This document shows positions 7,193 to 45,889 of a stretch of DNA of 64,000 nt, piece after piece. Origin of the DNA: Nemertoderma westbladi (lineage: Eukaryota > Animalia > Xenacoelomorpha); contig JAUCBJ010006757.1 in assembly GCA_032718475.1 (NCBI GenBank), positions 18,822 to 82,821 of the forward strand, read 5' to 3'. Both the position numbers and the translations under genes were made by a program. Within the stretch, counting starts at the first letter, position 1. Each line of letters starts with the position of its first letter. Under the pieces are notes generated by a model. The model ran no database searches and had not been told where the DNA came from. It worked only from the letters and a program-made list of their open reading frames with translations.

Positions 7193-8366
7193 TGTTTGCG
7201 CTTTTAAGACCTTTGACAGTTTAACCTGCCAAAATTAGAATGTCTTTTGGATGATAGATAGTCTTTAGCCTATGACGAGTATTTGATACACTACATTAGC
7301 CGAAGCCAGTCTATGCGCAATCATTCACCCGTTGGATATACCCGGGAGACTGAGTTCGGGGCTTAATGATTGATGGTGTAAGCCTACTGTATTATTCGAC
7401 TGATCGTAATATATAATCTCTGACAAATATTATTCACTTTCGGGAAATATTAACAGTTCCTTTAGGACGTGGCGCTCTAAATATATAAACAGAGTTATGA
7501 CTTAAACTAGACACAACGAAAAGGCTATAGATTCACGTATATGGCACATTCTTTAGGAGATGTTTTGTTATCAGTTACACTCATACACAATGCTGCACAA
7601 TACTGCACACTAATCTGCCGACCTTCACTAAATTTGGTCACGTATAAAGAGAGCAACAGACAATTTATGTTGGGCATATGAAATAGCATTAGATTCACTT
7701 CAAACCACTCAACATAGGTCGCAATCGTTTATCTGTAACCGGTCTCTCTAACCTTTAGTATATCAAGAAGGTGGGGTGTCTGACTATTGATCAGTATTCC
7801 GATATAATATTTCATCAACCAATATAATGAATAACCGACAGTAAAAGCAGTAATATTAATGTATAAATGATTATTAAGTGAATGAGTTAACTTGTGTAAC
7901 TCGTGAGTAGTTAAGATAACAGATATACGTTCTATAATTGAGCCTACTAATGTAAGACTAAAGACTGAAACACGGAGGTGCCAAAAGCCGGTTCTTAGGC
8001 TCTGGGCAAAAACATAACACTGAACTACTGAGTTCTGTATACACCTCCAACACAGAGACAAAAAACGCTCTGATTGGTCAACCGAACAACGAGAGAACAA
8101 AGAAACAAAGAAACGTCGACGTGGCAATATCAGCTGTTAGCCGTCGTCATGGTAGCGACACTGTTTTCAAGAGTATCCAGCTTATCGCGTCACGAGATTG
8201 CGGATTATGTCCTCTAAAGTACAAATACAGTACAAATACAGAAGAAATGACTTTTATGTCCTCTAAAACACCAGTACAGCAAGGACACGGCCTTTTTATG
8301 CCTGGCAAACCAACTACAGAGTACTTTAAGGGAAAATAACCGGTTAATGACGCAAAAGCTTTTACA
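7193..8366 (-). repeat. 3' LTR of element 1
   Basis: TGTTTGCG...CTTTTACA on +. Near-identical to 22085-23253, with roughly a dozen substitutions and a few indels by eye. Confidence 0.97.
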
Positions 8367-11605: not shown

Positions 11606-14600
11606 TTAAGTTGGGGAGTCCCTAGATGTGGGTTGGATTAGGGAAGTGGTCGTGGGAAGAGTTTCTTGCCTTCCATAGTTTCCGGAGAGCTCTCTGTCTC
11701 TTTCCAGTAAACATAAACGACCCACTGGGCGGTTGATCTGTTGAGTCTCAAAGACTATCCCTGGTTTCTTAAAGTTACGCCGCATGACGACGAGTTCTAC
11801 TGATCGCACCAAACCATCGCTCGAGATATGAGTCTCGATGATACGTCCTGTTTGCCATCGCTTACGTGGGAGATTGGGGTCCACAATAAGCACCATGTCT
11901 CCAGCGCTGACGTTTTCTTGCTGCGCAAACCACTTAGTTCGAAGTTGTAGAGTGGGCAGGTAATGTTTCTCGAAATGGTCAGCGAAACGACGGGATAGCA
12001 ACTGCATAAGTTGCCAGGTTCGACGGCAGTACTCGTCTCCGTCTGTGATCTCCGATCGTGGGAGCATGGCTACGGGTTTCTTCAGTAGAAAGTGCGCGGG
12101 TGTTAGCGCTTCCTGGGAATCAGGACTTGAAGAGACTGGCATAAGCGGTCTTTCGTTGAGATAGGCGGCGATTTCCTCCATTAACGTCCGCAATAGTTCG
12201 TCGGTGAGATAAGCGCGACAAGGTACAATAAAGTGGAACGCAGTCTTCACGCTCCTAATCAATCTCTCCCAACTTCCTCCCCACCAAGGGGCGTCGGCGG
12301 CGTTGAAGGTCCAGCTAGACGCTGTTATCTTTAGCTGATCGTCCACCTGTCTTTTGTTCCAGTCCTTTACGTAAGCTTGAATTGCGTTGTTGGCGCCAAT
12401 GAAGTTCGTTCCCTTATCCGATCTCATTGTGTTACTGGTTCCGAAACGAGCGATCTGTCGTCGTAAACTCAACACGAAGCTGTTGGTGGATAGATCGTTT
12501 ACCATATCGAGATGGATAGCTCTACAAGTCATACAAACGAAGATGACACACCATCTCTTGACTATAGTCCGGGCACGATATACTTCAATAGGGCCAAATA
12601 AATCCACACCGGTATTAGTAAAGGGTGGTTCGTAGAAGCTTACTCTTTCCCTAGGTAATTCTGCCTCTCGCTGTGTCAAAGGCCTACTGAATGCTTTCCT
12701 ACAAGGTATGCAGTTCCTAAGGACTTGGTTCAGAGCCCTACGGGGTTTATAAAAATAGAAGCGAGTTCGAATTTCGCTCAGAACTCGTTCTCTTCCAGCA
12801 TGATACAGTTTGCTATGAACATCTACAATCATCTTGATTTGTATGTCAAGATTTCTAATGAGTATGGGAAATTTAGTGTCAAAGGATAATGGGGCGTTGG
12901 TAAGCCTACCTCCAACACGTATTAACCCATCTATCATGGTACTAGAGAAGCGATCCCTTAAGCGCATCTGCGGATTTCTTAACAACAGGAAATACTTATC
13001 GGAATCCTCATAGCATTGTAGGAGTCTTAGCATCTGTTTGTTGGTTTCATCATGCTCCTGGTAACTGATCTTCTCCTTTAGAAACCTGTCGGATATCTTG
13101 TATTTGGGAAGATCTTTAACAACATGGACTCGTGCAGACGTTGATGGAGCATCATCACTATTGGTCTTTGTCCCGGAGTAACGATGATGAAAACATCGTT
13201 TTAAATAGGTGACGGCTTTACAGAGCCGATTCCAGGAGCTGTAGTGACGTATCGCTCTCTGCAAGAGGGGTGAGAGTCCTTGCGCGATATCTGGTATTCC
13301 AGATTTCCAATCCTTGTCACGGATTTCCAAGACTTCTTTAGTCGTGGCGGTGGGTTTCTGATCCAAAGCATCCTCTCCGGAAGTAAATAATACAGATAGA
13401 TCAACCGCAGGTTTAAACAACTTCGATTTACTCGCTCGAGTTTTGGGTTTAACTTTCTCCGCTCCCTTGGCCTGTCTGATCTCTGCTGTTGTGAGATGGG
13501 GAGGCCATTCTTCTTCTTCTCGGTAGAGAAAGTCGGGTCCACCTAACCATTCGGGAGTGTTTACCAATTCCTTTGGAGTCGCTCCTCGGGAAGCGATGTC
13601 TGCTGGATTAATCGTTCCGGGGCAATGTCTCCATTGGTCCATCGTCGTGCGACTAAGTATGATGGCTACTCTGTTGGTAACGAAGACGCTGAACTGACAG
13701 ACTTCATTGGTTATATACTCTAACACGAGTAAAGCGTCGGTCCAATAGACAGTTTTCTCTAATGGATAGTCAATCTGTTCTGTTACATTCCGGCCGATGG
13801 CTGTAGCGTATAGAGCCGCTTTTAACTCCGCTCGAGGAACTTTCAACTTGTTGTTGATTAATGCCTTAGAAGTAACCAAGGCGACTTTGATTCCATCCGG
13901 AGTTTCCACTCTTAGATAGGCTACTATACCTATTCCCATATCGCTGGCGTCTCCAAACACATGGAGTTGATAGGAATACGTAGGGAGAACATGACCAAAA
14001 TATGAATGGGAAATTATAAAATCCTCGATAGCCGGCAGAGAATCTTCCCATTTCATCCACTTCTTTAATAATTCTCCCTTAAGTGGATCGTCCCATGAGT
14101 GGTTCTCAAGCCACATTTGTTGTACCAAACTACGAGCAATCAATATAACTGGGCTAATAAATCCCAATGGATCGAAATAAGTGCTCAGTATACTTAAGCA
14201 AATCCGTTTGGTTCGAACTGGATTATCTCGCTGTTTTAGCTGGAAAAACAGGATATCTCGCTCTGTGTCCCATTTCAAGCCGAGTGTCTTGGTTTCTGGC
14301 AGATCATCTTTGATCAAATCTAGATCTTTCGCCCCTCGATCTTCCGCAGGGATCGACTCCAGAAACTCACGGGAGTTGCTGGTGAATTTCGTTAATCGAA
14401 ACCCACCTCTTTTTAAGCACTCTACCGTTCCTTTAGCGACCTCAATGGCTTCTTCAACTGATGGGAGGGACTTCAGATTATCATCCATGTATATGTCCCG
14501 CTTGATGTTGTCGATCACTTCCTTAGAGAAGGCCTCTCGGTTGTCCTCTGCAGTGGTACGCACTACCGAACAGGCGTTGGAAGGGCTTGAGATTATCCCA

Positions 14601-17600
14601 AAGGCCTGGATGGTCATCCAGTACTCCACCGGTTTCTGGTTGAGGTCTCCTTCGGGCCACCACAGAAATCGTAGACTATCTCGATCCCTATCTAACACCT
14701 TGACTTGTAAGAACATGCCTTCTATATCGGAGGCGAAAGCAATCGAATATTGTCTCAATCTTAAAAGAATTCCCAACAAAGATTGAAGTAAGTTGGGTCC
14801 GGGTAACAATTCAGAGTTAAGGGATTGACCCATGTAAAGAGCGGAGCCATCAAACACTACTCTCACTTCATGTGGCTTACCGGGTTTAGGGACGTAATGG
14901 TGAGTTAAGTAATACGTTCTTTCAGTCACAGGTGTTTCTTCCGGTACTCTCTCCGCGTATCCCTTACTAATAAATTTATCCAGCTGTGTTTGATACATTT
15001 CTTTAGCTGAAGAATTAGCCGTAAGGCGTCGATGGAGTTGCGCGATTCTTTTTTCCGCCAAGGGTCTGTTATTGATGAACTTCGGTTCTCTCTTGCGGAA
15101 AGGTAGACCGACTTCATACCTACCTTGATCTTTGAGGAAACGCGTAGTGGTTTCTTGGATCTGCTTGGCCCTTTCCTCTTCCACCGATAAGGCTTTATCG
15201 TAGGAATTGGGCTCTACCGCCTCTTGCGTAAAGAATCGTACGGCATGTTCATCTCGAGTCTTGGCATTACAACGCTCAATGACGTCATTTAGCTCGTCGT
15301 TATAAGCTTCTTGTTCAGATGGATAAAGAAGTTGACATAAGTTCACTTGGTTTTGCCAAGCCTCATTTTCCTTAAGGAGATCGATGGTATTCTCCTCATC
15401 AAAAAGCTGGTGAACGTCGTCGTTATCTGAGGAGTATGGGGTTCCCGCAGTTAAATCATCTCCCTCACTAGTATCATCTTCCCATTCACTCACCTGGCAG
15501 ACGCGCTCTTGCGGTAGTCTTTCTCTGAGTGTTCTACGGGAAGGGCCAGTGAAGTACCAACCTACTCTAGTTCTTACCGCATAGGTCTGTAGTGGTTGCG
15601 GTTGAGCAGGCCGTTTCTCTAATGTCTCCAGCGCCTCATGCGCGTTTTGGCCGATGAGTATTTGCACTCCAGGATAATCAGTCTGGAATCGAGGTATGTT
15701 AAGATGTTGGATGCTCTCATCCTCGTCCCAATTATAAAGGTCTGCTTGAGTAGTAGCGAAGTTCTTTATAGCCACCATTTTCACTGACCTTATGCTATGT
15801 TCTCCTAGTTCGTCTTGTGGGGTGGACAACGCACCTACATAATAATCAGCTGTTACTGTAGATTTCCAAACTTGCATAATGCCGGACATGTTTAGCTTAG
15901 TTCGGAACTTGGGTTGTCCAGCAAATATGTCTTCGGCTAGCTCTTTGTCGATGAATGTTCCTGTACTACCGGAGTCAAGGAGGGCGTTCACTACATAACT
16001 CCTCTTAGGTCCGTGAACCCTTACCTGTACCACAGGAAACTCTCGGATCCCTACATTGGAAGATGGCTCTTTCCAAGATGGTTGTCTATCAGAAGTAGTT
16101 AGAGTGAAGTCGCTGTCTGTATCTTTTTCATATGTGAGTGCTCGATACACTGCGGTATTTATCATGTAACAGGATTCGTTTTCGTCGGAGAACTCGTCCG
16201 TATAGAATCCTTCCATCTCAGATTGATCAGTGTCGTTCACATCACTGAATTGGACATGTAGTTCGGAATCACTTACCTGATTCGGACTATTTCGCTCGAA
16301 TTCAGCGTGCAACAAGATATGATGTTTCGCACCACACTTTGCACACCTTATGTCCGAGTAACAGGTTCGCCGTTGGTGTCCTTGTCTGAGGCAATTATAA
16401 CATAACCGCTTATCCCACATGACTTCTCGTCTCTCCGTTAATGATTTCTTCAGGAATTCCTCACACATATTCAAACGGTGGGTCCCGTCACATAGCGCAC
16501 ATTTCGGTTTGATGTTACTCACCTTAATCTGAGTCACATTGTGTACACTTGCTTTTTCTTCGGGCTTTCTCACCTGAATTCTCTTGGGAGACGTAGGAGG
16601 AGTTTTTCTGACCTGTTCTCTCCTGTCATTTGTTCGAGACTTGAATTTACTTACCTGATCTTTAGGCATTTTATTTACGTAATAAGATCTATCAGTGTCT
16701 TTCCCGCTATCTTCTCCTTGAGAAGTCTGGCTTTCGCCGTCGTCTGTATAACACACTGGTGTTACCTTTCTCCTAGAGACGGGTTTTTCACTTACCTTGT
16801 TTTCCGGTGTCTTCTCTCTGGACAGTTTCAGGAGCTGTAATTTCACTTCTCCATCTAGGAATGACATGAGATCAGCCATGGTAGGGTCTCGTCGTTGTTG
16901 TTCCATCATATATAACACTTTCTTATCCCAGCGTGTACCTACTCCACCCTTCGGTAAAGTAGAAGCCACTGCTCTAATAACCATAGCATTCTGATACTCA
17001 TGAGACTTACCTAGCCAATCTAATTGTCTACAGATCTCCTGAATCTCATCGGAAAACTCTATAATTCCGCTGCTAATAAACTTTCGGGGCGCTACCAACT
17101 TTGCATACAAATACCCAGCTATGTTATTCCTATTACCATACCTGATGTTTAGTGTATCCCAAACTTGTCTTAATCCGTCTGGATGTCCAATAAACTTTAA
17201 CGCCATTAACTTGGGAGATCCTTCCAAGCACTCGATGAGGAATCTAAGTTTCTCTCCATTAGATAGCACAGAGTTCTGTATGTTATCTTTGTAATATTCA
17301 TTAAAAGGTAACCATTTCATCTCATCTCCATTGAACTTGACGATCTCTCCCACCTTTACCGCTTGCCGGGCTTCGGTTCTAGCCATTTGACGCGTAAAAC
17401 TTTCTTGGGCCATCGTGTTATTTAATATCGAGTTATCGGTATATAAATTTCTCGGATTATGATCTGGTCTATAGGGAATATCATTATCAACAGGTCTATA
17501 ATTACCCTTAATAGGGTTCACTATAGGAGTTTCTACTTCGCTAGCAGTATAGATGCGTGTAGGCTCCACACCTTGCGCATGAGATACTTCAGACCTAACA

Positions 17601-19774
17601 GGTTGACACATTGTTACAAGGGGTGGTGGTATATCCTTTTGTGCATTTACTAATTTATCGCGTTCTAGCGCGATACTTTGCTGCACTTCTTGCAACTCTA
17701 GCCTACTTTCCCTTACTGTGCCTTTGAATTGTTGAACAGTCTCCTGCATCTGTCCGAGCAGGAGATCCATCCCCCGTCGTCTCTCATCCACCCATTCGAC
17801 CGCCGAAGCGGGATTCGCCAACGTTGTAGCGGGCGGACGAGGGACAACGGGCGACAAATCTTGAATATTTCGCTCGGAGTCCAGGGTATGAACTGTCTCA
17901 CGGACTGTTCTGCTGGGCACAGGTAGCTTAGTGCTGTGCAAAGGGAATTGTGAGGTAGGTTCAGGGAGTACAGGTGTCTCTACGACCGAAAGAGTAGCTT
18001 CGGGAACAGGCCTAATTATTTCAGGCTCATCTACTATAGTAGGGAGTCTCTCTATTGTAATAATTTGGTCTGTGGGTTCTGTACTCGCTAAGTTGGTGTT
18101 ATTTAGTTGCCTTCTAACAGCTGGAGGCAAATCAGGCAATTTCCGACGGTGGAATGTTCTTTTACGTCTGCTTAGGCGAGATCGATTTCCTCCGCCTTCA
18201 GTGTCGGTGGTATCGCCTTCCTCAGATGATGTATAACCTTGTCGTTTGGGAGTAGATCGATTCATCATCTGCATATTACTAGCTGTTAACTGTTTATTAA
18301 CGTTGTCTTGTCTCTCTTGAAGATTTTCCAACTCTAGTTGGGTTGTCTCTTCAGATGCCCTCCGTTCTGCTTCTGCCACTGCTATTTTTCTTTCCGCTTC
18401 GGCCGCCTTTCTTTCCGCTTCTGCTGCTGCCACCTTTCTTTCCGCTTCGGCCGCCTTTCTTTCGGCTTCTACTGCTGCAGCTGCCGCTTTTGCCTCTGCC
18501 GCTGCCGCTTTTGCCTCTGCCGCTGCCTCTGCCGCTTTTCTATCCACTTCTGCCGCTTTTCGTTCCGCTTCTGCCGCTGCCACTGCCGCTGCTGCTGTCT
18601 TTCTATCTTCTATACGTTTTTTCTTTACTTGTTCTTCTTGAACCTTGGCGATGCGGAGTTGTTCATCGAATTTAGCTTGGTTCGCCGCTAACCTATCCAC
18701 ATCAATTGCATCCAACACACGCTGGGCTCCTTCACTATTAGGACTAAGTCCCGCTAACCTTCTCCTCAACTCTTCATCTCCCAAAAAACGCTGATAGTCT
18801 GACAGATAGATGTCAATGGCATCCCTCTTATGCGGTTTCTCTGCCGTCGCTTCACTTTCCACTTGGGAAAAAGTAGCGTCCGTTGATTCTCCATGGGTTG
18901 AGCGCTCCTCCAGCTGAGCTTTCCACTGAGCTGTTCCTTGAACCTGGCGACTCACCCGTTGAAACCAAGTCTTTACGGCAACCTGCAACGACGTGTCTTG
19001 TCTTCTTTTAGAAGCCTCTTCAAAGGCTGATAATATTAGCCTGATTCGCAGAATTCTTTCTCTAACTTGATAAAGCAGTTGTCCCTGCTCTTGAGGTCCC
19101 TTTGGTTGTTGAAACAGTTGTTTTTCTACTCGCTCCATAGAGCTGAAGAATCCCTGTGCGTATCCGGCTGCGGACCTCTTCCACACAGCTGGATCGATGG
19201 TTTCCTTGGCTACTCCCATCCGGTGTATGTCTTCCCAGGCAGCTTCTGATAAATCAAATGGGAGTCCGGGTCCGGGGAAGTTCCATTGTGACTCGACCAT
19301 AGACTTCAGTTCTTCCCTTGTGTATCCCTCATATCGATCTTTAGTTGATCGCTTACTTCTCGCCCAATCGATCTGGTGTTCTTCCACCGCAATCAATAAC
19401 CTAGTGAGTACGGCTGCAGGAAGGATGAGAAGGGGATCCGAATAAACCGCATCCGTCATCCTTGCTCCGCGCTCGGGTGTCAGTTCTACAGTATCTTCAC
19501 TACTGGAGCTGTCGGGCCGCTGAGAAATAAGTTCTTGGCTCGCGGGTTGTTGCTGTTCCGCTGCTTCTTGGTCCCGCTTGACCTGAGCTCGAGTGCCTAT
19601 GATAGACCTACGATGTTGGACCAGCCTAGGTTCTGTTATTACTACTGGAGGGATGACCTTCCTCACAGTGGGAGGTGAACTGAACTTAGGACTAGACGGT
19701 TCTACACCTCTGTCTGAGTCGCAGATAGTTACATCTAATAAACTGTCTGACAGGTTCTGTTTAGTATCAGACAT
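11606..19774 (-). CDS. BEL/Pao Gag-Pol polyprotein (~2720 aa; likely ATG at 19774, MSDTKQ)
   Basis: DUF1759-like Gag (KFNGDEMKWLPF); three BEL-type Cys/His knuckles (CALCDGTH..C, CYNCLRQGH..C, CAKCGAKHHILLH); aspartic protease ALLDSGS; RT YMDD; RNase H VFGDASD/PRAEL; NPADIASRG; integrase HHCC plus GVDLFGP/SDKGTNF/GGSWERLIRS. Confidence 0.97.
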   Translation of the reverse strand: MSDTKQNLSDSLLDVTICDSDRGVEPSSPKFSSPPTVRKVIPPVVITEPRLVQHRRSIIGTRAQVKRDQEAAEQQQPASQELISQRPDSSSSEDTVELTPERGARMTDAVYSDPLLILPAAVLTRLLIAVEEHQIDWARSKRSTKDRYEGYTREELKSMVESQWNFPGPGLPFDLSEAAWEDIHRMGVAKETIDPAVWKRSAAGYAQGFFSSMERVEKQLFQQPKGPQEQGQLLYQVRERILRIRLILSAFEEASKRRQDTSLQVAVKTWFQRVSRQVQGTAQWKAQLEERSTHGESTDATFSQVESEATAEKPHKRDAIDIYLSDYQRFLGDEELRRRLAGLSPNSEGAQRVLDAIDVDRLAANQAKFDEQLRIAKVQEEQVKKKRIEDRKTAAAAVAAAEAERKAAEVDRKAAEAAAEAKAAAAEAKAAAAAVEAERKAAEAERKVAAAEAERKAAEAERKIAVAEAERRASEETTQLELENLQERQDNVNKQLTASNMQMMNRSTPKRQGYTSSEEGDTTDTEGGGNRSRLSRRKRTFHRRKLPDLPPAVRRQLNNTNLASTEPTDQIITIERLPTIVDEPEIIRPVPEATLSVVETPVLPEPTSQFPLHSTKLPVPSRTVRETVHTLDSERNIQDLSPVVPRPPATTLANPASAVEWVDERRRGMDLLLGQMQETVQQFKGTVRESRLELQEVQQSIALERDKLVNAQKDIPPPLVTMCQPVRSEVSHAQGVEPTRIYTASEVETPIVNPIKGNYRPVDNDIPYRPDHNPRNLYTDNSILNNTMAQESFTRQMARTEARQAVKVGEIVKFNGDEMKWLPFNEYYKDNIQNSVLSNGEKLRFLIECLEGSPKLMALKFIGHPDGLRQVWDTLNIRYGNRNNIAGYLYAKLVAPRKFISSGIIEFSDEIQEICRQLDWLGKSHEYQNAMVIRAVASTLPKGGVGTRWDKKVLYMMEQQRRDPTMADLMSFLDGEVKLQLLKLSREKTPENKVSEKPVSRRKVTPVCYTDDGESQTSQGEDSGKDTDRSYYVNKMPKDQVSKFKSRTNDRREQVRKTPPTSPKRIQVRKPEEKASVHNVTQIKVSNIKPKCALCDGTHRLNMCEEFLKKSLTERREVMWDKRLCYNCLRQGHQRRTCYSDIRCAKCGAKHHILLHAEFERNSPNQVSDSELHVQFSDVNDTDQSEMEGFYTDEFSDENESCYMINTAVYRALTYEKDTDSDFTLTTSDRQPSWKEPSSNVGIREFPVVQVRVHGPKRSYVVNALLDSGSTGTFIDKELAEDIFAGQPKFRTKLNMSGIMQVWKSTVTADYYVGALSTPQDELGEHSIRSVKMVAIKNFATTQADLYNWDEDESIQHLNIPRFQTDYPGVQILIGQNAHEALETLEKRPAQPQPLQTYAVRTRVGWYFTGPSRRTLRERLPQERVCQVSEWEDDTSEGDDLTAGTPYSSDNDDVHQLFDEENTIDLLKENEAWQNQVNLCQLLYPSEQEAYNDELNDVIERCNAKTRDEHAVRFFTQEAVEPNSYDKALSVEEERAKQIQETTTRFLKDQGRYEVGLPFRKREPKFINNRPLAEKRIAQLHRRLTANSSAKEMYQTQLDKFISKGYAERVPEETPVTERTYYLTHHYVPKPGKPHEVRVVFDGSALYMGQSLNSELLPGPNLLQSLLGILLRLRQYSIAFASDIEGMFLQVKVLDRDRDSLRFLWWPEGDLNQKPVEYWMTIQAFGIISSPSNACSVVRTTAEDNREAFSKEVIDNIKRDIYMDDNLKSLPSVEEAIEVAKGTVECLKRGGFRLTKFTSNSREFLESIPAEDRGAKDLDLIKDDLPETKTLGLKWDTERDILFFQLKQRDNPVRTKRICLSILSTYFDPLGFISPVILIARSLVQQMWLENHSWDDPLKGELLKKWMKWEDSLPAIEDFIISHSYFGHVLPTYSYQLHVFGDASDMGIGIVAYLRVETPDGIKVALVTSKALINNKLKVPRAELKAALYATAIGRNVTEQIDYPLEKTVYWTDALLVLEYITNEVCQFSVFVTNRVAIILSRTTMDQWRHCPGTINPADIASRGATPKELVNTPEWLGGPDFLYREEEEWPPHLTTAEIRQAKGAEKVKPKTRASKSKLFKPAVDLSVLFTSGEDALDQKPTATTKEVLEIRDKDWKSGIPDIAQGLSPLLQRAIRHYSSWNRLCKAVTYLKRCFHHRYSGTKTNSDDAPSTSARVHVVKDLPKYKISDRFLKEKISYQEHDETNKQMLRLLQCYEDSDKYFLLLRNPQMRLRDRFSSTMIDGLIRVGGRLTNAPLSFDTKFPILIRNLDIQIKMIVDVHSKLYHAGRERVLSEIRTRFYFYKPRRALNQVLRNCIPCRKAFSRPLTQREAELPRERVSFYEPPFTNTGVDLFGPIEVYRARTIVKRWCVIFVCMTCRAIHLDMVNDLSTNSFVLSLRRQIARFGTSNTMRSDKGTNFIGANNAIQAYVKDWNKRQVDDQLKITASSWTFNAADAPWWGGSWERLIRSVKTAFHFIVPCRAYLTDELLRTLMEEIAAYLNERPLMPVSSSPDSQEALTPAHFLLKKPVAMLPRSEITDGDEYCRRTWQLMQLLSRRFADHFEKHYLPTLQLRTKWFAQQENVSAGDMVLIVDPNLPRKRWQTGRIIETHISSDGLVRSVELVVMRRNFKKPGIVFETQQINRPVGRLCLLERDRELSGNYGRQETLPTTTSLIQPTSRDSPT

Positions 19775-22073: not shown

Positions 22074-22084
22074 ATATCTGTTAT
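22074..22084 (-). other. Non-tRNA primer-binding site of element 1 (ATAACAGATAT), complementary to an LTR-internal 11-mer
   Basis: Abuts the 5' LTR and has no TGG. Its partner is at 7916-7926 (perfect) and 22802-22812 (1 mismatch). Confidence 0.75.
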
Positions 22085-23253
22085 TGTTTGCGCTTTTAAG
22101 ACCTTTGACAGTTTAACCTGCCAAAATTAGAATGTCTTTTGGATGATAGATAGTCTTTAGCCTATGACGAGTATTTGATACACTACATTAGCCGAAGCCA
22201 GTCTTATGCGCAATCATTCACCCGTTGGATATACCCGGGAGACTGAGTTCGGAGCTTAATGATTGATGGTGTAAGCCTACTGTATTATTCGACTGATCGT
22301 AATATATAATCTCTGACAAATATTATTCACTTTCGGGAAATATTAACAGTTCCTTTAGGACGTGGCGCTCTAAATATGTAAACAGAGTTATGACTTAAAC
22401 TAGACGCAACGAAAAGGCTATAGATTCACGTATATGGCGCATTCTTTAGGAGATGCTTTGTTATCAGTTACACTCATACACAATGCTGCACAATACTGCA
22501 CACTAATCTGCCGACCTTCACTAAATTTGGTCACGTATAAAGAGAGCAACAGACAATTTATGTTGGGCATATGAAATAGCATTAGATTCACTTCAAACCA
22601 CTCAACATAGGTCGCAATCGTTTATCTGTAACCGGTCTCTTTAGTATATCAAGAAGGTGGGGTGTCTGACTATTGATCAGTATTCCGATATAATAATTCA
22701 TCAGCAAATATAACGAATAACCGACATTAAAAGCAGTAATATTAATGTATAAATGATTATTAAGTGAATGAGTTAACTTGTGTAACTCGTGAGTAGTTAA
22801 GATAACATATATACGTTCTATAATTGAGCCTACTAATGTAAGACTAAAGACTGAAAACACGGAGGTGCCAAAAGCCGGTTCTTAGGCTCTGGGCAAAAAC
22901 ATAACACTGAACTACTGAGTTCTGTATACACCTCCAACACAGAGACAAAAAACGCTCTGATTGGTCAACCGAACAACGAGAGAACAAAGAAACAAAGAAA
23001 CGTCGACGTGGCAATATCAGCTGTTAGCCGTCGTCATGGTAGCGACACTGTTTTCAAGAGTATCCAGGTTATCGCGTAACGAGATTGCGGATTATGTCCT
23101 CTAAAGTACAAATACAGTACAAATACAGAAGAAATGACTTTTATGTCCTCTAAAACACCAGTACGGCAAGGACACGGCCTTTTTATGCCTGGCAAACCAA
23201 CTACAGAGTACTTTAAGGGAAAATAACCGGTTAATGACGCAAAAGCTTTTACA
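22085..23253 (-). repeat. 5' LTR of element 1
   Basis: Direct repeat of 7193-8366, followed by TSD CTGCC. Confidence 0.97.
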
Positions 23254-35292: not shown

Positions 35293-36520
35293 TGTTCGCG
35301 CTTTTGAAGACCTTTAGCAGTTTAACCTGCCAAAATTTATGTCTTTTAGTTAATTAACACACCTTTAGCATACGACAATATTTTATGCTAATAAACAAAA
35401 CATTAGCCGAAGCCAGCCCATGCGCGATCATTCACCCGATGGATCTACACCCGGGAGGCTGAATTCGGATGCTTAGATTTTATTATTGCAGTGTAAGGTT
35501 GCAGTGTAAACCTATTGTATTATTCGATAGATCGTTAATATGTAATTTCTGACAGATATTATTAACTTTCGGGAAATATTAACAGTTCCTTTAGGACGTG
35601 GCGCTCTATCTATTTAAACAGAGCTAGGACTTATACTAAACGCAACGATAAGGCTTATGATTAAAGTATAAGTCGCATTCTTTAGGAAATGCTTTGTTAC
35701 CAGTCACATCACACTCACAATCATGCACACTATTCTGCCGACCGTCAGTATATTTGATCACACCTAAAGAGAACAGCAATTGACTCAGGTAGTGTCTACT
35801 AAATAACATTAGATTCAATACACACCACATTGATATAAATCGCAATTGTTATATATAGCCCGCCTCTCTAACCTGTAGTGTATCAAGAAAATTGGGAATT
35901 TTGGGTGATTTATCCGTATTCTCCAAAGAGCAATATTTCCATCAACAAATAGATACAATTAATAACTGACGGTAAATAGCAGTACAAACAATATGATTAG
36001 TGCAGTTAAATTAAGTGAGGTAACACCGCCGGTAACAGTTATACTTTCTATAATCTAAGCAGTTTTACTAGAGTTCTTAGAGCCGGTGTTTCTGGCTTAG
36101 ACAGCAATAACAACAAAGTATCAAGTAAAAGCAGTAAGACTGAACACTCTCCTTATGATCGGCTGAAAAGCTACACGTCGACAGGAAAAATCGCTCTGAT
36201 TGGCTCAAGCCAAACAAAGAACTATGCGTCCAATGGATGTTTCCATGTCAGCAACCAGCTGTTAGATGTCGTAATATGAATCATCACGGCTAAGCTGTGA
36301 AAGGTAGTTGGTGCATTACAGGTTTTTTGCCTTACCATGTCCGCCAAAACACGTATATAGCAGAATGACTTTTATGTCCGTTAAAACACCTGTAACGGTA
36401 CCTTGCGGGCGAGGGGAATATATATACAGTTAGAGAACCTTTTTAGAGTATTCCAGCGCCTGGGGGGAAACTGGATTGCGAAGCAAAAGGGGCCAGTTAT
36501 ATCCCACAGAAGCTTTTACA
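35293..36520 (-). repeat. 3' LTR of element 2
   Basis: TGTTCGCG...CTTTTACA. By eye it differs from the 5' LTR only by a 2-bp AT indel. Confidence 0.97.
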
Positions 36521-36598
36521 CCGCTCCCAGAAAATGGGATTTGAGTCTATAAATATACAAAAATCACAGTTTCTAATATACGTAAATACTCTAAACAG

Positions 36599-38048
36599 TT
36601 AGTCTTTCTTGCGCGGACGGCGTTTACGCAGTTTTTTAAAGCTAGCAAGAGTCCTTTTCTCTTTGGGGCGAGCCACTTTACGAGGAGGGCTATAACTCCT
36701 GGGTGAAGGGTGCAATATGATTGCATCAGAAGGTATGGGATTGCGATCGGTATATCCGCCGGTCGAAGTACCGGGTTGATTGACATCAACGTCCGGGGAG
36801 AGGGGTCTAACGGCTTTGAGAGCTCGTTTCAAGACAGCCGCTCTTACGGGTCCTTTACGAGTGGTCTGAACGAGGGCCGTGGGTGGACCATAGGCAGTTA
36901 GAAACTTCCTTGGTTTAATGGTTCTTTCCAACTCGCGTTCGCGGGCTCTGTACTCGTAAGGCCGTCGATATACTTCCTGTAACTCAGGGTGTGAGTTGAC
37001 AAATAAGTCTCCATAGGCCGGATCTTGACGGATAAAGTTTATTAAGTTATACGAATTGATGTCACTCGGATTAATGCTCCTGAGGAATTTGCGTACATAT
37101 TTGGTTGAAATACATTCTCCAACGCGCTTCAATAGTTCATAACTTGATAGGCGCGATTTCTGCTCGACGGAGGCAAACAAATATGGATGGAACGCATAAA
37201 CTCCTTCGTAGGCGCTTCCAGGATAATAGCGATGGCGTGAATCACAATGTAAATCAGCGTTCGCTTCCCAAGCTCTGATGTAACGTAGTGTGATCATTTC
37301 ATCTACGCTTTCCAAATCGTGATTAAAAGGGCAATCGAAACTGGCATGTCTCCTTTAGTTGACAATGGTGACATTGAGTCATAAATTGAGGGCAAACCGC
37401 AAAAATATGCAAATTATTAAATCTGCAATACGCGCAATAAATTTCCATCGCCGGTTGTTCGTGGAAATAGGAACAGCGGACGTTTGTGTCCATGGGCGTA
37501 ACATGGTCTCTCGATGCGCATAACCGACAACGTTGCCGAGAAACATAGTTGGCATGGCGATAATCGTACGCAGTGAGACACTGTGGACTTTGATACCATT
37601 CTAGGATGTAATCGTTGTCGCTGTTCCGAGCGCGATAGGCTGAATCTCCTCAGATTCTAGACATATTGGTTCGTCTTCCCAGTCTGTTACGAATAGAATT
37701 TTCGTGATCTATTCTCGGTTTATCGTTACGACGCCGCTGGGTATGATATTTAAATAGAACCATTTCCCTTTCGGTGTCTACATCGTCCGTATCATGTAAA
37801 TCGATAGGATGGCCAGTAGTTAAGAAGTCCATATACGTACCATTACGATTCGTATAGCGAGCGGTGAATTTTCTATAGTCCAATTCACGCGTAAGTTGTT
37901 CCTGGGACATCGGCGGTTCGATATAGCGACCATCGTCCTCCGTAATGGTTGGATCGGTTTCACCGCGTATCAAGCTATCCACAAACGCTTGTAAAGGTAG
38001 AGTATATCGCTCTCTAATACCAAGGTCATCTTCTATCAATTCCGTCAT
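36599..38048 (-). pseudogene. Accessory ORF of element 2 (~480 aa when repaired): conserved N-terminus, three CCHC-type zinc knuckles, basic C-terminal NLS-like tail
   Basis: Reading through the TGA at 37650-37652 gives CRLCASRDH...C and CAYCRFNNLHIFAVC. Removing 1 nt at ~37351 gives CHHCQLKGHASFDC and joins the 36599-37315 ORF ending KKLRKRRPRKKD. Confidence 0.75.
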
Positions 38049-39672
38049 ATCTGCTATCTGAGTTTATTAATATCAGTATGAGTTAATATTTAGGCAAGCG
38101 GGCGTCGCTGCCTACTAGTCTTTGCCCCCGGACAGTGGGTTTCTCAGCGCCGATGTACCGTCGTCGCGGTGTTTACGCCAACATGTAGCAACAGCACGAC
38201 AACGATAACCGGCACAAGTCCCACCACTGTCCGTCCCAAAGGCTTGAATCCACTTAAGGTTATCTCGGTAGAGTTAGGGCTACTTTACAATTGCGATTAG
38301 CTACTGTAAACACACTTTAGTAGTAACATTCACCTATAAACGCACAAATTCCATACAATCATTACTTACTGCACACATGCAGGCCATTTGTCCGTTAATC
38401 AGTGTCTTCCAGAATGTCACGTTATTACTATGTATCCTTGGATACTAATAGTGCGCTATGTATACTCTTATGCTACGCAATGGGGCAAGCTTTTTATTGT
38501 TCCTTTAACTTGCTTCTAATTCTAGCGTGGGTGTTGCCATGGTGACATTATGGAAAACTAGCGGTAGAATTAGGGTAATTCTCATGCATACAGATCTGGG
38601 ATGCTATTTAATAGTAATTCTTTAATTGTCAATATCCTCTTTATGCATGATTTTATAAATTTTATCGGCTATTGACTATATGTTGGAGATTCTCACACTC
38701 TAATACACTCAATATGAATCTCCGCTCCCATGATCTATTAATTACTGGAATTTTGGGAATGTTATAAATTGCACAAAATGACAATTTATGAAATTCATTT
38801 GAATATGAATTTAAATTTATTCCCGTGAATTTTATTATTTGATGTTAAATTGACACAAATTTTATTCCAGAGCATATCTGGGGACTTAGGATCCTTAATT
38901 CTATAAAATAGTCCTTCTAAGAATATCGGTAAATACTGCGATATCTGAATTGACTAGAAATTTTAAAGGATCGGGATTTTACAGATTTTAATAAATATTA
39001 AATTAATATTTAGGATGGGCACCGATTTATTCCAGAACTTGTCTGGGGACATTAACCACTGATTCTAGAATTTGTCTTTCAAGTATATCGGTGGGTGCCA
39101 CGATATCTTAATCGACTGGAATTACAGAAGGTCAAAAGTTTAACAGATTTATTTGCGATTTACGCTACTGTTAGAGGGACATCACGCTACTATATGTATT
39201 ATTTGTTATAAGGTAGAAGAGCAATATCGCACGAAGCAATGTCAGTGTGAAGAGGCAAGTCGTTTCCAAGGTCTACCCAGAGCTTGGTTTAGCCGAGACA
39301 CGAGGATCTGAACTTTGCATTCCTAATACTCTGCCTACCAATAATACTTAAATATAGTAGGAGCTTTATTGTACTTTAATAAGTACGGACATTTCATCTT
39401 ACTGTAGTCACGTATTTATAATATGATACGGACAGTAAGGAAAGAGAAAAAATAATTATTTCTCGCCGTCGCACTAAATATATATTATAAATAATTACGT
39501 ACGTAATAAACACTAATATATTGCACTAATCTACTAAATAATCCCTAAAATAACATTCTACCAAATAAAATTAAAGAAAACGATTATAATAATATTACAT
39601 AATAATACATACATAAATATAAAATAAAAACAAATATAAAATGATATAGTCACACACCCACTCCATATGTTA

Positions 39673-42600
39673 TTACGTTATGGAGTCCCTAGATATTTGT
39701 CGGATTAGGGAAGTGGTCGTAGGAAGAGTATCTTGCCTTCCATAGTTTCCGGACAGTTTTCGGTCTCTTTCCAGTAAACATAAACGACCAGCTGGGTGAT
39801 TGGGTTGTCGTGTTACTTTCTCCGCTCCCTTGGCCTGTCTAATCTCAGCCGGGTTAAGGTGGGGAGGCCATTCATCTTCTTCTTTACTTAGGGAGTCGGG
39901 TCCACCTAACCAGCCGGGAGTATCTATCCGTTCTTGAGGAGTCGCTCCTCTGGAAGCGATGTCGGCTAGATTAATCATCTCGGGGCGATGTCTCCATTGA
40001 TCTTCATTGGAGTTAATATCGTCATTATCTGAGGAGTATGGTGTTCCCTCAGTTAGTTCGTCCACTTCACTGCTCTCCACTTCCCAACCATTTATCTGGC
40101 ATATTCTTTCTGGTGGTAGTCTCTCTTCGAGAGTTCTGCGGGAAGGGCCAGTAAAGTACCAACCTACTCTAGTTCTTACCGCATAGGTTTGTAGTGGCTG
40201 CGGTTGAGCAGGTCGTTTTTCCAATGTCTCGAGCGCCTCGTGCGCGTTTTGGCCGATAAGTATTTGCACTCCAGGATAATCCGTCTGGAATCGAGGTATC
40301 TTAAGATGTTGGATGCTCTCATCCTCGTCCCAATTATAAAGGTCTGCTTGGGTAGTAGCGAAGTTCTTTATAGCCACCATTTTTACTGACCTTATACTTT
40401 GTGCTCCTAATTTATCCTGGGGGGTGGACAACGCACCTACATAGTAATCTGCCGTTATGGTAGATTTCCAAACCTGTATAATTCCTGACATATTCAATTT
40501 AGTCCGGAACTTGGGTTGTCCAGCAAAGATATCTTCGGCTAGTTCTTGATCGATGAATGTTCCTGTGCTGCCGGAGTCAAGTAGGGCGTTCACTATGTAA
40601 CTCTTGTTGGGACCATGAACTCGAACTTGCACTACAGGAAATTCTCTTATTCCTATGTTGGAAGTTGGAACTTTCCAAGATGGTTGTTTGTCAAAAGGAG
40701 TTGGAGTAAACTCGTCAGTGTCCTTTTCATCCGTAAGTGCTCGATACACTGTGGTATTTATTAGGTAACAGGATTCGTTGGCGTCGGAGAATTCGTCCGT
40801 ATAGAATCCTTCCCACTCAGAACTTTGGTCAGTGTCGTTCACATCACTGAATTGGACATGTGATTTGGGCTCACTTACCTGACTCGGGCTGTTTCGTTCG
40901 AATTCACTTTGTAACAAGATGTGATGCTTCGCACCGCACTTTGCACACTTTATGTCGGAGTAACAGGTTCGCCGCTGGTGTCCGCGTCTGAGGCAATTAT
41001 AGCATAACCGCTTGTCCCACACAACTGTACGTCTGTCTACAAGGGATTTCTTTAGGAATTCCGCACACGCACTCAAACGGTGGGGCCCGTCGCACAGCGC
41101 ACAGTTGGGTTTAATGTTACTCACCTTATTTTGGGTGACGTTATGCACTCTAGTTCTTTCTTCGGGCTTTCTTCCGAGTACTCTGTTAGGAAACTGAAGA
41201 GGAGTCTTAGCAACCTGTTCTCTCCTGTCATGGGTTCGAGCTTTAGATTTACTTACGTTCTTTGAGGTCTTGTTAACATAGTAAAATTTCTCGGTGTCTT
41301 CCTCGCTGTCTTCTTCTTGAGAAGCTTGGCTTTCGCCGTCATCAGTATAACACACCGGTGTTACTCTTCTCCTAGAAACGGGTTTCTCACTTACCTTATT
41401 TTCCGGTGTTTTCTCTCTGGATTGCTTTAGGAGTTGTAATTTCACTTCGCCATCCAAGAATGACATGAGATCAGCCATGGTAGGGTCTCGTTGTTGTTGT
41501 TCCATCGTATATAACACCTTCTTGTCCCAGCGTGTACCTACTCCACCCTTGGGCAAAGTAGATGCTAAGGCTCCTACAACCATAGAATTCTGGTATTCAT
41601 GAGACTTACCTAACCAATCTAGTTGTCTACAGATCTCCTGAATCTCATCGGAAAACTCTATAATCCCGCTGCTAAGAAACTTTCGGGGGGCCATTAATTT
41701 CGCATATAAATACCTAGCTATGTTATTCCTATTACCATACCTGATGTTTAGTGTATCCCAAACTTGTCTTAATCCATCTGGATGTCCAATAAATTTTAAC
41801 GCCATTGACTTGGGAGGTCCTTCCAAGCACTCGATGAGGAATCTAAGTTTCTCTCCGTTGGATAACACAGAGTTCTGTATGTTATCTTTATAATATTCAT
41901 TAAAAGGTAACCATTTCATCTCATCTCCATTGAACTTGACTATCTCTCCAACCTTTACCGCTTGACGGGCTTCGGTTCTAGCCATTTGACGCGTAAAACT
42001 TTCTTGGGCCATCGTGTTATTGAATATCGAGTTATCGGTATATAAATTTCTCGAATTATTATCAAGTCTATTGGGAATGTCATTAACAACAGGCGTATAA
42101 TCACCCTTAATAGGGTTTGCTATAGGAGTTTCTACTTCACTAGCAGTATAGATGCGTGTAGGCTCCACACCTTGCGCATGTAATACTTCAGACCTAACAG
42201 GCTGACACACTGTTACAGGGGTTATTGGTATTCCCTTTTGTAGGTTGACTAATTTGTCGCATTCTAGTGCGATACTTTGCTGCACTTTTTGCAACTCTAA
42301 CCTACTTTCCCTTACTGTTCCCTTGAGCTGCTGAACAGTCTCTTCCATTTCCCTGACCTGCTGAGAGGAGCACAAACAGTGTTCCCTCAGCTGCTCGAGC
42401 AGGAGACCCATCTCCCGTCGTCCCTCAGCTACCCACTCAACCGCCGAAGCGGGAGTCGCCAACGTAGTAGCGGGCGAGCGAGAGACGACGGGCGATAAAT
42501 TCTTGATACCTCGCTCGGCGTCCAGGACGGGTTCGGACTCGGGAACAGTCCTACTGGGCACAGGTAGTCTTCTGGTTTGTTTCTTCAAGTAATCTTGTTT

Positions 42601-42777
42601 CGCCTGAAGGTTTTCCAGCTCTAGTTGGATAGTCGCTTCAGACGTCTTCCGTTCTGCTTCTGCCACTGCCTCTGCCGCTTTTCTGTCTTCTCTCCTTTCA
42701 AGACACTGTCCAAGTCGACGACTCATTCTAAAACCCTCTAAGAGACTATCTGACAATGTTTGTGTTGTGTCAGACAT
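39673..42777 (-). CDS. Gag-protease polyprotein of element 2 (1034 aa), with RT, RNase H and integrase deleted in frame
   Basis: Colinear with element 1 Gag/PR. PYSSDNDD jumps to DQWRH..NLADIASRG..KGAEKV, then to GRLCLLERD and the native C-terminus. Confidence 0.92.
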   Translation of the reverse strand: MSDTTQTLSDSLLEGFRMSRRLGQCLERREDRKAAEAVAEAERKTSEATIQLELENLQAKQDYLKKQTRRLPVPSRTVPESEPVLDAERGIKNLSPVVSRSPATTLATPASAVEWVAEGRREMGLLLEQLREHCLCSSQQVREMEETVQQLKGTVRESRLELQKVQQSIALECDKLVNLQKGIPITPVTVCQPVRSEVLHAQGVEPTRIYTASEVETPIANPIKGDYTPVVNDIPNRLDNNSRNLYTDNSIFNNTMAQESFTRQMARTEARQAVKVGEIVKFNGDEMKWLPFNEYYKDNIQNSVLSNGEKLRFLIECLEGPPKSMALKFIGHPDGLRQVWDTLNIRYGNRNNIARYLYAKLMAPRKFLSSGIIEFSDEIQEICRQLDWLGKSHEYQNSMVVGALASTLPKGGVGTRWDKKVLYTMEQQQRDPTMADLMSFLDGEVKLQLLKQSREKTPENKVSEKPVSRRRVTPVCYTDDGESQASQEEDSEEDTEKFYYVNKTSKNVSKSKARTHDRREQVAKTPLQFPNRVLGRKPEERTRVHNVTQNKVSNIKPNCALCDGPHRLSACAEFLKKSLVDRRTVVWDKRLCYNCLRRGHQRRTCYSDIKCAKCGAKHHILLQSEFERNSPSQVSEPKSHVQFSDVNDTDQSSEWEGFYTDEFSDANESCYLINTTVYRALTDEKDTDEFTPTPFDKQPSWKVPTSNIGIREFPVVQVRVHGPNKSYIVNALLDSGSTGTFIDQELAEDIFAGQPKFRTKLNMSGIIQVWKSTITADYYVGALSTPQDKLGAQSIRSVKMVAIKNFATTQADLYNWDEDESIQHLKIPRFQTDYPGVQILIGQNAHEALETLEKRPAQPQPLQTYAVRTRVGWYFTGPSRRTLEERLPPERICQINGWEVESSEVDELTEGTPYSSDNDDINSNEDQWRHRPEMINLADIASRGATPQERIDTPGWLGGPDSLSKEEDEWPPHLNPAEIRQAKGAEKVTRQPNHPAGRLCLLERDRKLSGNYGRQDTLPTTTSLIRQISRDSIT

Positions 42778-44648
42778 TTCGCTTTATACAGTTGGATGCC
42801 TACTGCTATATATACAGTTAAAGCAAGTCTAGTAATTCAGTATCACTGCTAGCCTAATAATTAATTACCGATACTGCTACTCAATGTAGCGTGATATATA
42901 TATATAATATATTAGAATACCGGTATGCTTATAGTATATATAAGTATTATTACAGACGAGATTTGTCACAGAGTACCGGTATATAAATTTAGCACAAATA
43001 TATATAAATATATAATAGGCCTATAGTGAATACCGGTATACAGCTTACACTTATAGTATATATAAGTATAATTATGAACTAGAATTAATTACAGAGTACC
43101 GGTATGATTTCAGCTCAAATTTATAGAAATAAATATAATAAGCCTATGGTAAATACTGGTATGTCAATTATTTTAGAATAATTGAATTTCTGAATATTTT
43201 AGGGTTACTTGGTTACTTTAACTTACTTTATTACCGTTATTTAAGCAGTAGTCCAACTGATATTGAGACCTAGTTGTTGTATGGCAGGCCTACTATTTAT
43301 AAATCGTTTGAGTTGATTTATAATATTTATATACCAGTTTAAAATGGGTTTTTGTCAATATTTGAAATAAATGTTATTATTTCTGGGGGAGTCACTACAC
43401 AGAAGCTGAACGCCTCTCAGTGAAGTGCTATTTATTTGACACTAAAACTGATAATTCTAATTTACCTAAGTTACTTAATACTACAAATTACTTACGATAC
43501 GGGTGAGATTAATTCTCTAATTAAACACAACAAAATATTACGTACGAAATTTTTAGGGTAATTTTACAGGAAGTCTACAAACCAGTCCAACAAAGGGTTA
43601 GATTTCTGGTTATTACAAAGGACAGGGTACTACGGTATTTAAATAATAAGTAGTAGTAAATATATTGTACTGTCCAGATAGGAAAATACCACCGCCTGAC
43701 GACCTATAACCGTATCGCTATAGGTACTACGTTATGTATCACGGATTGTTCCTACCCAGAAGCTAATAGAGCTAACGAATGTGCCTATCAACCACTTTAC
43801 AACACAAATATAGCCTACTGCCTACACTAATTACTTCGGAAAGCACTGTACACTAAACCCTAAATTAGGTACAAGTACCGGTATAACAAATAATCAGTAG
43901 TTAAATATACTTGAACAGTTAAAAGAACCACGGCATCTGCTGGAGTGACCGAAGCACAAAATCTCCAGTCTTTACCTACGCCGAGCAGCCCTGATGTAGT
44001 ACCGGGGTTAGTTTAACTATAACGGTATGTATAACAAGCACAATTACTGTAGGAATAAACTTGGGGACATGAATGTTGCGAATAATCGCATAAACTAGTG
44101 TATTACGGTACCTGAACAGACCACACAAACAAACACAGGCTAAAACACTGGCAGACTACGATCAAGCCTAAATAAACTACAGTATATGCAGATTCTGAAA
44201 CTGTTAGTTAGTATGCGTTCTAACACGGTAGTACGACTTATTCTTTAAGAGGGGATTGACCTTCAGCATATGGCTGCCCCAACTTACTAACGGCACTTTA
44301 TCAGACAAACTCTACACACGCCGTAATCTCTCCAAACCCAACAACAGTCAGACAGCAGCTCAGCCTACAATTATCTGAACAATCTGAGCAGGGTCACACG
44401 CCTTCTGCTCAATATTAGCCTACTAGTAAATAAAACCGACAGAAATAAGTAAACTATACAAAAGAATGAGGGGTGATCAATCCCTATTCCCCTGGCAGCC
44501 TACAATATACAATAGATCACAATCGAAATAATACTAAATGTACTTGTACAGCAGTACCGGTACCGGTGATGACAGTTAGGCCTACAGACCTACAGAAATA
44601 CCGGTTACTACGGTATTTTGCAACCTTATTGCCTACTGCAATAAGATC

Positions 44649-44659
44649 ATAACTGTTAC
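44649..44659 (-). other. Non-tRNA primer-binding site of element 2 (GTAACAGTTAT)
   Basis: Abuts the 5' LTR. A perfect 11-nt partner lies in both LTRs (45401-45411 and 36032-36042). Confidence 0.78.
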
Positions 44660-45889
44660 TGTTCGCGCTTTTGAAGACCTTTAGCAGTTTAACCTGCCAA
44701 AATTTATATGTCTTTTAGTTAATTAACACACCTTTAGCATACGACAATATTTTATGCTAATAAACAAAACATTAGCCGAAGCCAGCCCATGCGCGATCAT
44801 TCACCCGATGGATCTACACCCGGGAGGCTGAATTCGGATGCTTAGATTTTATTATTGCAGTGTAAGGTTGCAGTGTAAACCTATTGTATTATTCGATAGA
44901 TCGTTAATATGTAATTTCTGACAGATATTATTAACTTTCGGGAAATATTAACAGTTCCTTTAGGACGTGGCGCTCTATCTATTTAAACAGAGCTAGGACT
45001 TATACTAAACGCAACGATAAGGCTTATGATTAAAGTATAAGTCGCATTCTTTAGGAAATGCTTTGTTACCAGTCACATCACACTCACAATCATGCACACT
45101 ATTCTGCCGACCGTCAGTATATTTGATCACACCTAAAGAGAACAGCAATTGACTCAGGTAGTGTCTACTAAATAACATTAGATTCAATACACACCACATT
45201 GATATAAATCGCAATTGTTATATATAGCCCGCCTCTCTAACCTGTAGTGTATCAAGAAAATTGGGAATTTTGGGTGATTTATCCGTATTCTCCAAAGAGC
45301 AATATTTCCATCAACAAATAGATACAATTAATAACTGACGGTAAATAGCAGTACAAACAATATGATTAGTGCAGTTAAATTAAGTGAGGTAACACCGCCG
45401 GTAACAGTTATACTTTCTATAATCTAAGCAGTTTTACTAGAGTTCTTAGAGCCGGTGTTTCTGGCTTAGACAGCAATAACAACAAAGTATCAAGTAAAAG
45501 CAGTAAGACTGAACACTCTCCTTATGATCGGCTGAAAAGCTACACGTCGACAGGAAAAATCGCTCTGATTGGCTCAAGCCAAACAAAGAACTATGCGTCC
45601 AATGGATGTTTCCATGTCAGCAACCAGCTGTTAGATGTCGTAATATGAATCATCACGGCTAAGCTGTGAAAGGTAGTTGGTGCATTACAGGTTTTTTGCC
45701 TTACCATGTCCGCCAAAACACGTATATAGCAGAATGACTTTTATGTCCGTTAAAACACCTGTAACGGTACCTTGCGGGCGAGGGGAATATATATACAGTT
45801 AGAGAACCTTTTTAGAGTATTCCAGCGCCTGGGGGGAAACTGGATTGCGAAGCAAAAGGGGCCAGTTATATCCCACAGAAGCTTTTACA
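44660..45889 (-). repeat. 5' LTR of element 2
   Basis: Direct repeat of 35293-36520, followed by TSD ATATG. Confidence 0.97.

Follow-up and report, generated by a model that had tools for sequence, protein, structure and literature searches.

The analysed stretch of the Nemertoderma westbladi genome (contig JAUCBJ010006757.1, 64,000 nt, hereafter the window) carries two related long terminal repeat (LTR) retrotransposons, designated E1 and E2, both on the minus strand, and the subject here is the site beside their 5' LTRs at which minus-strand DNA synthesis would be primed. E1 extends from 23253 to 7193, is about 16 kb long, and is flanked by a 5-bp target duplication, GGCAG. Its 5' LTR (22085..23253, 1169 bp) and 3' LTR (7193..8366, 1174 bp) both have TG...CA ends and are 98% identical, with 14 substitutions and 9 gap columns between them. 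A short purine-rich tract (8375-8367) lies directly ahead of the 3' LTR. A single intact gag-pol open reading frame (ORF; 11606..19774) encodes 2722 amino acids counted from the ATG. E1 is a BEL/Pao element by the Pfam domains of its polyprotein (DUF1759, Peptidase_A17, DUF5641, and the integrase zinc domain) and by its motif order of protease (PR, 1276), reverse transcriptase (RT, 1692/1773, YMDD), RNase H (RH, 1950-2067), and integrase (IN, 2366-2511). The TG...CA LTRs within the range of 0.2-1.2 kb, the target duplication, and the polypurine tract agree with this family as well. A chromodomain, on which membership in the Tf1/sushi group depends, had no Pfam match in the E1 polyprotein. The closest proteins listed are 37-44% identical to E1 over RT-RNase H, and the named ones are from corals, echinoderms, and mussels; no reference of the named BEL/Pao clades (Sinbad, Suzu, Tas, Pao, BEL, Flow, and Dan) was among the protein matches listed.

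E2 (35293..45889) has LTRs at 45889-44660 and 36520-35293 and a target duplication CATAT. The two LTRs differ by a 2-nt indel and by no substitution, so E2 is young. Gag and protease are retained in E2, RT is gone, and RNase H and integrase are mostly missing. The LTRs of E1 and E2 are about 75% identical (186 differences over 758 aligned columns). The E1 leader (22073-19775, 2.3 kb) contains 128-bp and 287-bp tandem repeats, and the E1 3' region (11605-8367, 3.2 kb) has neither a long ORF nor a Pfam match; the E2 counterparts of both regions are 84-91% conserved.

Directly after the terminal CA of the 5' LTR, the E1 leader opens with ATAACAGATAT (22084-22074), and these 11 nt (22074..22084) occupy the primer-binding site (PBS) position. 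The original prediction, made from the sequence of the window, held that E1 has no tRNA-type PBS, and this was borne out. No TGG adjoins the LTR end, the first one in the E1 leader being at +18, and the E2 leader has none within its first 40 nt. The 18-nt PBS for a tRNA 3' end, which the International Committee on Taxonomy of Viruses (ICTV) gives for the family, is thus absent in both elements. No tRNA genes were predicted by ARAGORN in the 64-kb window or in 96 loci of relatives. The exact reverse complement of the E1 PBS occurs once on the element strand of the whole window, in the 3' LTR (7926-7916), and this candidate self-primer (7916..7926) forms 11/11 pairs with the PBS. The copy in the 5' LTR (22802..22812) forms 10/11, the pair at 22808 being broken by one substitution. 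Both copies had been predicted in this form. The predicted energy of the duplex with the E1 PBS is -10.5 kcal/mol for the 3' LTR copy vs. -4.1 kcal/mol for the 5' LTR copy. In E2, the PBS (44649..44659) reads GTAACAGTTAT, with two changes relative to E1, and the candidate self-primer (45401..45411) again forms 11/11 pairs, as does its 3' LTR copy (36042-36032). Watson-Crick pairing ends at 11 nt on both sides in E1 and in E2, in line with the predicted limit; one G-U pair can be added in E2. A match of at least 11 nt anchored at the first leader base was obtained in 34 of 20,000 dinucleotide shuffles for the E1 3' LTR and in 25 of 20,000 for the E2 LTR.

The two changes in the E2 PBS are matched by two changes in the LTR 11-mer, and all 11 pairs are intact with both E2 LTRs, so the covariation check proposed for other copies came out in favour of the pairing when run on E2. 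In local shuffles of the E2 letters, confined to columns that have one base in common in E1, the 11 pairs all survived in 31 of 50,000 runs, and together with both compensations in 2 of 50,000. Hybrid duplexes between E1 and E2 are weaker by 4-6 kcal/mol. The compensatory changes in the second element support the view that the complementarity between PBS and LTR 11-mer is under selection. Covariation and complementarity to the own LTR, which are characteristic of Tf1-type self-priming, are thus both found in E1/E2. The PBS duplex in the native E2 5' RNA has a predicted probability of 1.0 for an RNA beginning with the 11-mer, of 0.46-0.86 if 10-140 bases precede it, and of 0.54-0.76 with a longer 3' tail.

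From these sequences, E1 and E2 probably prime minus-strand synthesis with an LTR-derived piece of their own RNA and not with a tRNA, and we assign this reading a probability of roughly 0.7. Folding of the transcript would bring the 11-mer onto the PBS, which lies some 720 nt further downstream; a cut 3' of the 11-mer would follow, made by the RNase H domain of the element if the process runs as in Tf1, and RT would extend the cut 3' end into the U5 region. Each replication cycle of an LTR element copies its PBS anew from the primer, and PBS and primer would therefore stay in step. The reading is supported by the complementarity, the position right after the LTR end, the compensatory changes, the lack of TGG, and a second covarying helix inside the LTR.

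In this second helix, recognized in a joint fold of the E1 and E2 LTR regions, the partner of the 11-mer is a site lying about 350 nt downstream of it, instead of the PBS. The site is a split copy of the PBS, designated the decoy, at 22428..22465 in E1 (parts 22465-22459 and 22435-22428 with a small hairpin between them; 3' LTR copy 7572-7535) and at 45033..45070 in E2 (parts 45070-45064 and 45040-45033; 3' LTR copy 35701-35664). Its target in E1 is 22816-22809 and 22807-22801, and the 15 pairs involve the 11-mer and four bases upstream of it: the first part of the decoy pairs with primer bases 6-11 plus one, and the second part with bases 1-4 plus the four upstream bases. All primer-side differences between E1 and E2 in this helix are compensated (3/3). 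Only three Watson-Crick helices of at least 7 bp with a compensatory change occur in the 758 LTR columns, and two of them are the decoy halves. The 15 pairs survived 5 of 50,000 local shuffles, and 0 of 50,000 with the three compensations, odds that are overstated for a helix chosen post hoc. On a three-row alignment, 57 of 57 cells pair, with two-sided change in four pairs; this was matched by 9 of 500 shuffles, and slid structures reach at most 56%; the rows are related, and the figure is not a probability. The decoy in the E1 3' LTR is predicted at 0.99 with the four upstream bases present and at 0.55 and 0.00 without them, and in a short E2 region it is the minimum-energy fold.

Position 22808 is the sole primer base unpaired in the decoy helix, so that decoy pairing is intact in the E1 5' copy and only a PBS pair is lost. 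The native E1 5' RNA is predicted not to form the PBS duplex, in keeping with the suggestion that the mismatch at 22808 may cripple this copy. Given self-priming, the decoy may mask the 11-mer in the 3' repeat copy and in nascent RNA that does not yet include the PBS, and would be displaced at priming; this role is conceivable and somewhat short of probable. A covarying decoy is a previously unnoted feature, new here; neither this competing helix nor the splice-junction form found in relatives was part of the original prediction. A long LTR intron running from the donor-like AG/GTTAG (LTR position 615) to the acceptor-like GGCAG (LTR position 1137), whose excision would take out the decoy, was set aside because it lies downstream of the primer, where copies of spliced RNA would lose it while both elements keep it, and also because the acceptor-like bases lie within a conserved hairpin. 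Two of the substitutions between the E1 LTRs, at LTR positions 798 and 815 (window 22456/22439 and 7563/7546), pair mutually in the inner hairpin of the decoy, as G-C vs. A-U, and 5 of the 14 are clustered at LTR positions 527-558. The differences between the E1 LTRs may be due to conversion by another copy of the family rather than to neutral decay.

A candidate promoter (22906..22964) lies upstream of the 11-mer. The E1 and E2 LTRs share an invariant 12-nt CCAAT block (22964), followed 54-60 nt further downstream by an initiator-like TCAGT (22910), and these are located 151-161 nt and about 100 nt upstream of the 11-mer, respectively. Both are promoter-like motifs. No consensus TATA was found 30 nt upstream of the 11-mer in either LTR; a TATAGAA 10 nt upstream, possibly a TATA box, is paired within the extended decoy helix. 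The conserved motifs and the usual spacing of promoters favour a start near 22910, and the start at about 22812 in the original prediction was not established. Such a start is doubtful, though it would strip the upstream pairs of the decoy in the 5' copy only, which suits a switch. Self-priming does not require the RNA to begin with the 11-mer. Two further features were noted in the LTR. A 44-nt block at about 22371-22328, in the LTR interior (22480-22340), is invariant between E1 and E2 and has no Rfam match, and 7 nt at 22630-22640, present in the other three LTRs, are missing from the E1 5' LTR, by which a splice-donor-like motif is removed.

Beside the PBS, a U5-type stem (22088..22213) is formed by 22213-22208 and 22093-22088, with one compensatory change in E2, and encloses a conserved hairpin near 22125-22104. 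It is deduced from two sequences, and the joint E1/E2 fold gives 22093-22088 another partner. As for the duplexes of the Tf1 pretzel structure, the LTR side offers one 6-bp stem with a compensatory change (two sequences), and the leader side, which has no LTR partner common to E1 and E2, folds into its own hairpin. No Rfam match was obtained in 21500-23400 at E values up to 5.

Contigs of sequencing run X1 bridge both E2-type deletions (E1 coordinates 11729-13452 and 13636-15417), and from these joints, elements of the RT-less form probably make up a non-autonomous family with multiple copies. The run (share 0.21; its contigs may be DNA) covers all 30 E1 bins with many variants. None of the 40 variant rows listed, beyond which there are 1761 more, is at the PBS or the 11-mer, and none of the 10 joints listed is inside an LTR.

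More distant relatives were collected with an alignment that comprised 41 sequences (E1 plus 40 out of 120 matches listed) and yielded 80 metagenome and 16 genome-collection loci. A long-range direct repeat was present in 39 of the 96 loci; 22 were examined and 16 kept, all with about 40% RT identity, after removal of near-duplicates (L055 and L073) and loci with uncertain LTR ends (L037, L038, L067, and L087). In 11 of the 16, representing about eight independent groups (L004/L007/L068 and L088/L090 are kin), a GT-AG junction within the element's own LTR is complementary to the PBS for 10-16 nt. This match was reached by 0 of 200 shuffles in nine of these relatives and by 1 and 8 of 200 in the other two. 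With GTRAG donors only, 10/16 relatives match vs. 9/306 cross pairs, six of the nine being within one family. TGG-type sites are present in two relatives (L025 and L065), L081 reaches 8 nt, and L030 and L095 show nothing. The splice-junction form was not recovered in E1 and E2 with GTRAG donors only (0 and 5 nt). A tree of RT sequences (FastTree, midpoint root, 103 rows comprising E1, 88 of the 96 loci, and 14 of the 120 proteins) groups the two TGG-type elements with good support and has E1 on a long branch with an uncertain place. Neither the position of E1 nor the direction of change follows from this midpoint-rooted tree, and the independent origin of tRNA-free priming claimed for E1 was not established.

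Contiguous copies of the PBS in the LTRs of relatives were equalled by at most 8 of 400 shuffles in 4 of the 16, two of them owing to a palindromic PBS; the test does not detect a split decoy like that of E1/E2. In L004 and L035, the start of the PBS recurs as a 9-nt direct copy downstream of the junction primer (3' LTR positions 577 and 339; 5 and 8 of 400 shuffles), a possible decoy in these relatives. A blind scan for LTR ends in 80 loci was noisy, with 13 splice and 8 contiguous matches over 240 scans of shuffled loci, and served only for labelling the tree. The exact 22-nt LTR pattern was found in no metagenome locus, and none of the 11 pattern matches in viral contigs was a relative. The loci L081-L096 are BEL/Pao retrotransposons of animals within contigs filed under bacterial genome bins, which carry host contamination.

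Taken together, tRNA-free self-priming could be widespread in BEL/Pao elements of marine animals and gated in two ways. Most lineages would have the primer split by an intron, so that only spliced RNA primes, and the E1/E2 family would keep the primer whole and hidden in the decoy copy of the PBS, a switch silencing the 3' copy and releasing the 5' copy at priming. As a whole, this extended model is rather unlikely.

Several observations weigh against self-priming in E1 and E2 or against the decoy. The native E1 5' RNA is predicted not to form the PBS duplex (probability at most 0.01), and the covariation comes from two elements in one window. The distance of about 720 nt between primer and PBS exceeds that between acceptor and LTR end in the spliced form of the relatives (52-289 nt), only one of the 16 relatives (L031) has a contiguous 11-nt match, so that the contiguous form is at most a candidate outside the E1/E2 family, and the two flanking duplexes of Tf1 are matched only partly. 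The family is described by the ICTV as tRNA-primed (PMC8742986). The comparison with host tRNAs covered the window, where ARAGORN gave none. As regards the decoy, a milder null with the changed columns fixed produced an 8-bp helix with two compensations in 10 of 60 runs. In longer E2 folds, a local hairpin displaces the upstream decoy half (0.00-0.01), and the other half varies from 0.99 to 0.01 with the length folded (0.01-0.33 in the longer folds).

Two alternatives are improbable to about the same degree. According to the first, the pairing serves the leader as a structural or regulatory element (a switch in packaging, dimerisation, or translation), and priming falls to something else, for example a fragment of a tRNA or a different small RNA. 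The R-U5 region is indeed predicted to be folded, with several covarying helices in the joint fold (two-sided change in 11 of 147 pairs), and the choice of two partners for the 11-mer resembles that in a switch. A plain structural fold is opposed by the helix beginning exactly at the first base after the LTR in both E1 and E2, and by the relatives, which reach the same complementarity at the PBS position by a different route. A tRNA has U at position 33 and a purine at 37, and both 11-mers, placed by eye at tRNA positions 29-39 or 30-40, violate one rule or the other. Two distinct primers acting in trans would also leave the matched LTR changes unexplained, even though half-tRNA primers exist in Ty1/copia elements according to the available part of PMC6317226.

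The second alternative retains self-priming with a primer of another source, namely a spliced junction, the copy in the 3' repeat, or the other RNA molecule of the packaged pair. A 10-nt junction match (E1 LTR positions 446 and 615) does occur in E1 and E2 at the same aligned sites, but it is at chance level (31 and 16 of 200 shuffles), its donors are without consensus, and it disappears when only GTRAG donors are allowed. Moreover, splicing would take away the 11th primer base, and this base covaries with the first base of the PBS. The perfect 11-mer of E1 is in the 3' LTR copy only, and the polyprotein is intact, which speaks for the second alternative; masking of the 3' copy by the decoy is predicted for E1 (0.99). 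A missed ordinary tRNA site or chance complementarity is very improbable, for although the ICTV profile names an 18-nt PBS for tRNA-Arg or tRNA-Gly (PMC8742986) and two relatives have TGG-type sites, no TGG occurs within 17 nt of the E1 LTR end or 40 nt of that of E2, and the shuffles (34 and 25 of 20,000; 2 of 50,000 with both compensations) oppose chance.

According to the available portions of the respective papers, Tf1 primes with its first 11 bases, RNase H cutting between bases 11 and 12 (PMC7175516), and forms a pretzel structure of three duplexes (bioRxiv 10.1101/2022.12.06.519325), a PBS complementary to the own LTR is described for Tj1 too (PMC4600332), self-priming is predicted for the plant Tcn1 clade and the copia TAR lineage (Houba and Osr-1; PMC6317226), and hairpin priming is perhaps ancestral (PMC3601003). 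As far as these portions go, E1/E2 resemble Tf1/Tf2 of Schizosaccharomyces pombe, Tj1, and the Tf1/sushi group in a PBS directly after the 5' LTR, an 11-nt complement in the own LTR, and the lack of a tRNA site, and resemble TAR copia and Tcn1 elements in that self-priming is predicted from complementarity alone. The latter are elements of other superfamilies in plant hosts. Unlike the Tf1/sushi elements, which are Ty3/gypsy chromoviruses, E1 has a BEL/Pao polyprotein without a chromodomain match. It differs from Tf1 in the remote candidate primer and incomplete pretzel mentioned above, in that the primer as the RNA 5' end is only a candidate reading, and in the covarying decoy, which is not described in the accessible parts of the Tf1 literature examined. 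Thus, E1/E2 likely work like Tf1 in self-priming and yet are not Tf1/sushi elements. What stands of the Tf1-like interpretation originally proposed is the absence of a CCA-type PBS, the selected complementarity, and the predicted E2 duplex, but not the start site, the release of the primer by RNase H, or the independent origin. With the ICTV Belpaoviridae, for which replication is poorly understood, E1 shares LTRs of 0.2-1.2 kb, a single gag-pol ORF, the order PR-RT-RH-IN, a polypurine tract, and an animal host, and differs in its length of 16 kb (4.2-10 kb in the profile) and in the lack of a CCA-type PBS (18 nt for tRNA-Arg/tRNA-Gly; PMC8742986).

As the original prediction had stated, no report of self-priming in BEL/Pao was found in the literature searched, with subscription papers mostly, Repbase notes, and all supplements outside its scope. 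The main texts of PMC3118150 and PMC554778 mention neither PBS nor tRNA, and the available portions of PMC8220671, PMC5443660, and PMC5445492 do not mention self-priming in BEL/Pao. Proof of self-priming exists for Tf1 only, with predictions for some groups of gypsy and copia elements, and BEL/Pao would be the third superfamily if the reading is true. It would then bear on the question of ancestral vs. repeated origin of self-priming (raised in the accessible part of PMC3601003) and on freedom from the host tRNA supply, and annotation based on the PBS would miss many intact animal elements. The decoy helix would be a concrete answer to a problem of every self-primer, namely that the primer sequence occurs twice in the RNA.

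Elsewhere in the window, two mutually unrelated satellite arrays are located at 27199-30503 (35 bp × 95) and 60133-63829 (36 bp × 106). In both, the repeat unit has a splice-donor-like motif in the plus strand, AAG/GTAAGT or AAA/GTAAGT, in keeping with the splice-donor consensus. An intronless ORF for phosphoserine aminotransferase (25374-26522, plus strand) is 51-60% identical to animal proteins among the matches listed and belongs either to a divergent animal host or to a retrocopy. Long inverted-repeat elements of the foldback type were recognized at 53344-55480 and 56270-56915, and non-LTR RT fragments at 33534-34292 and 51466-52095.
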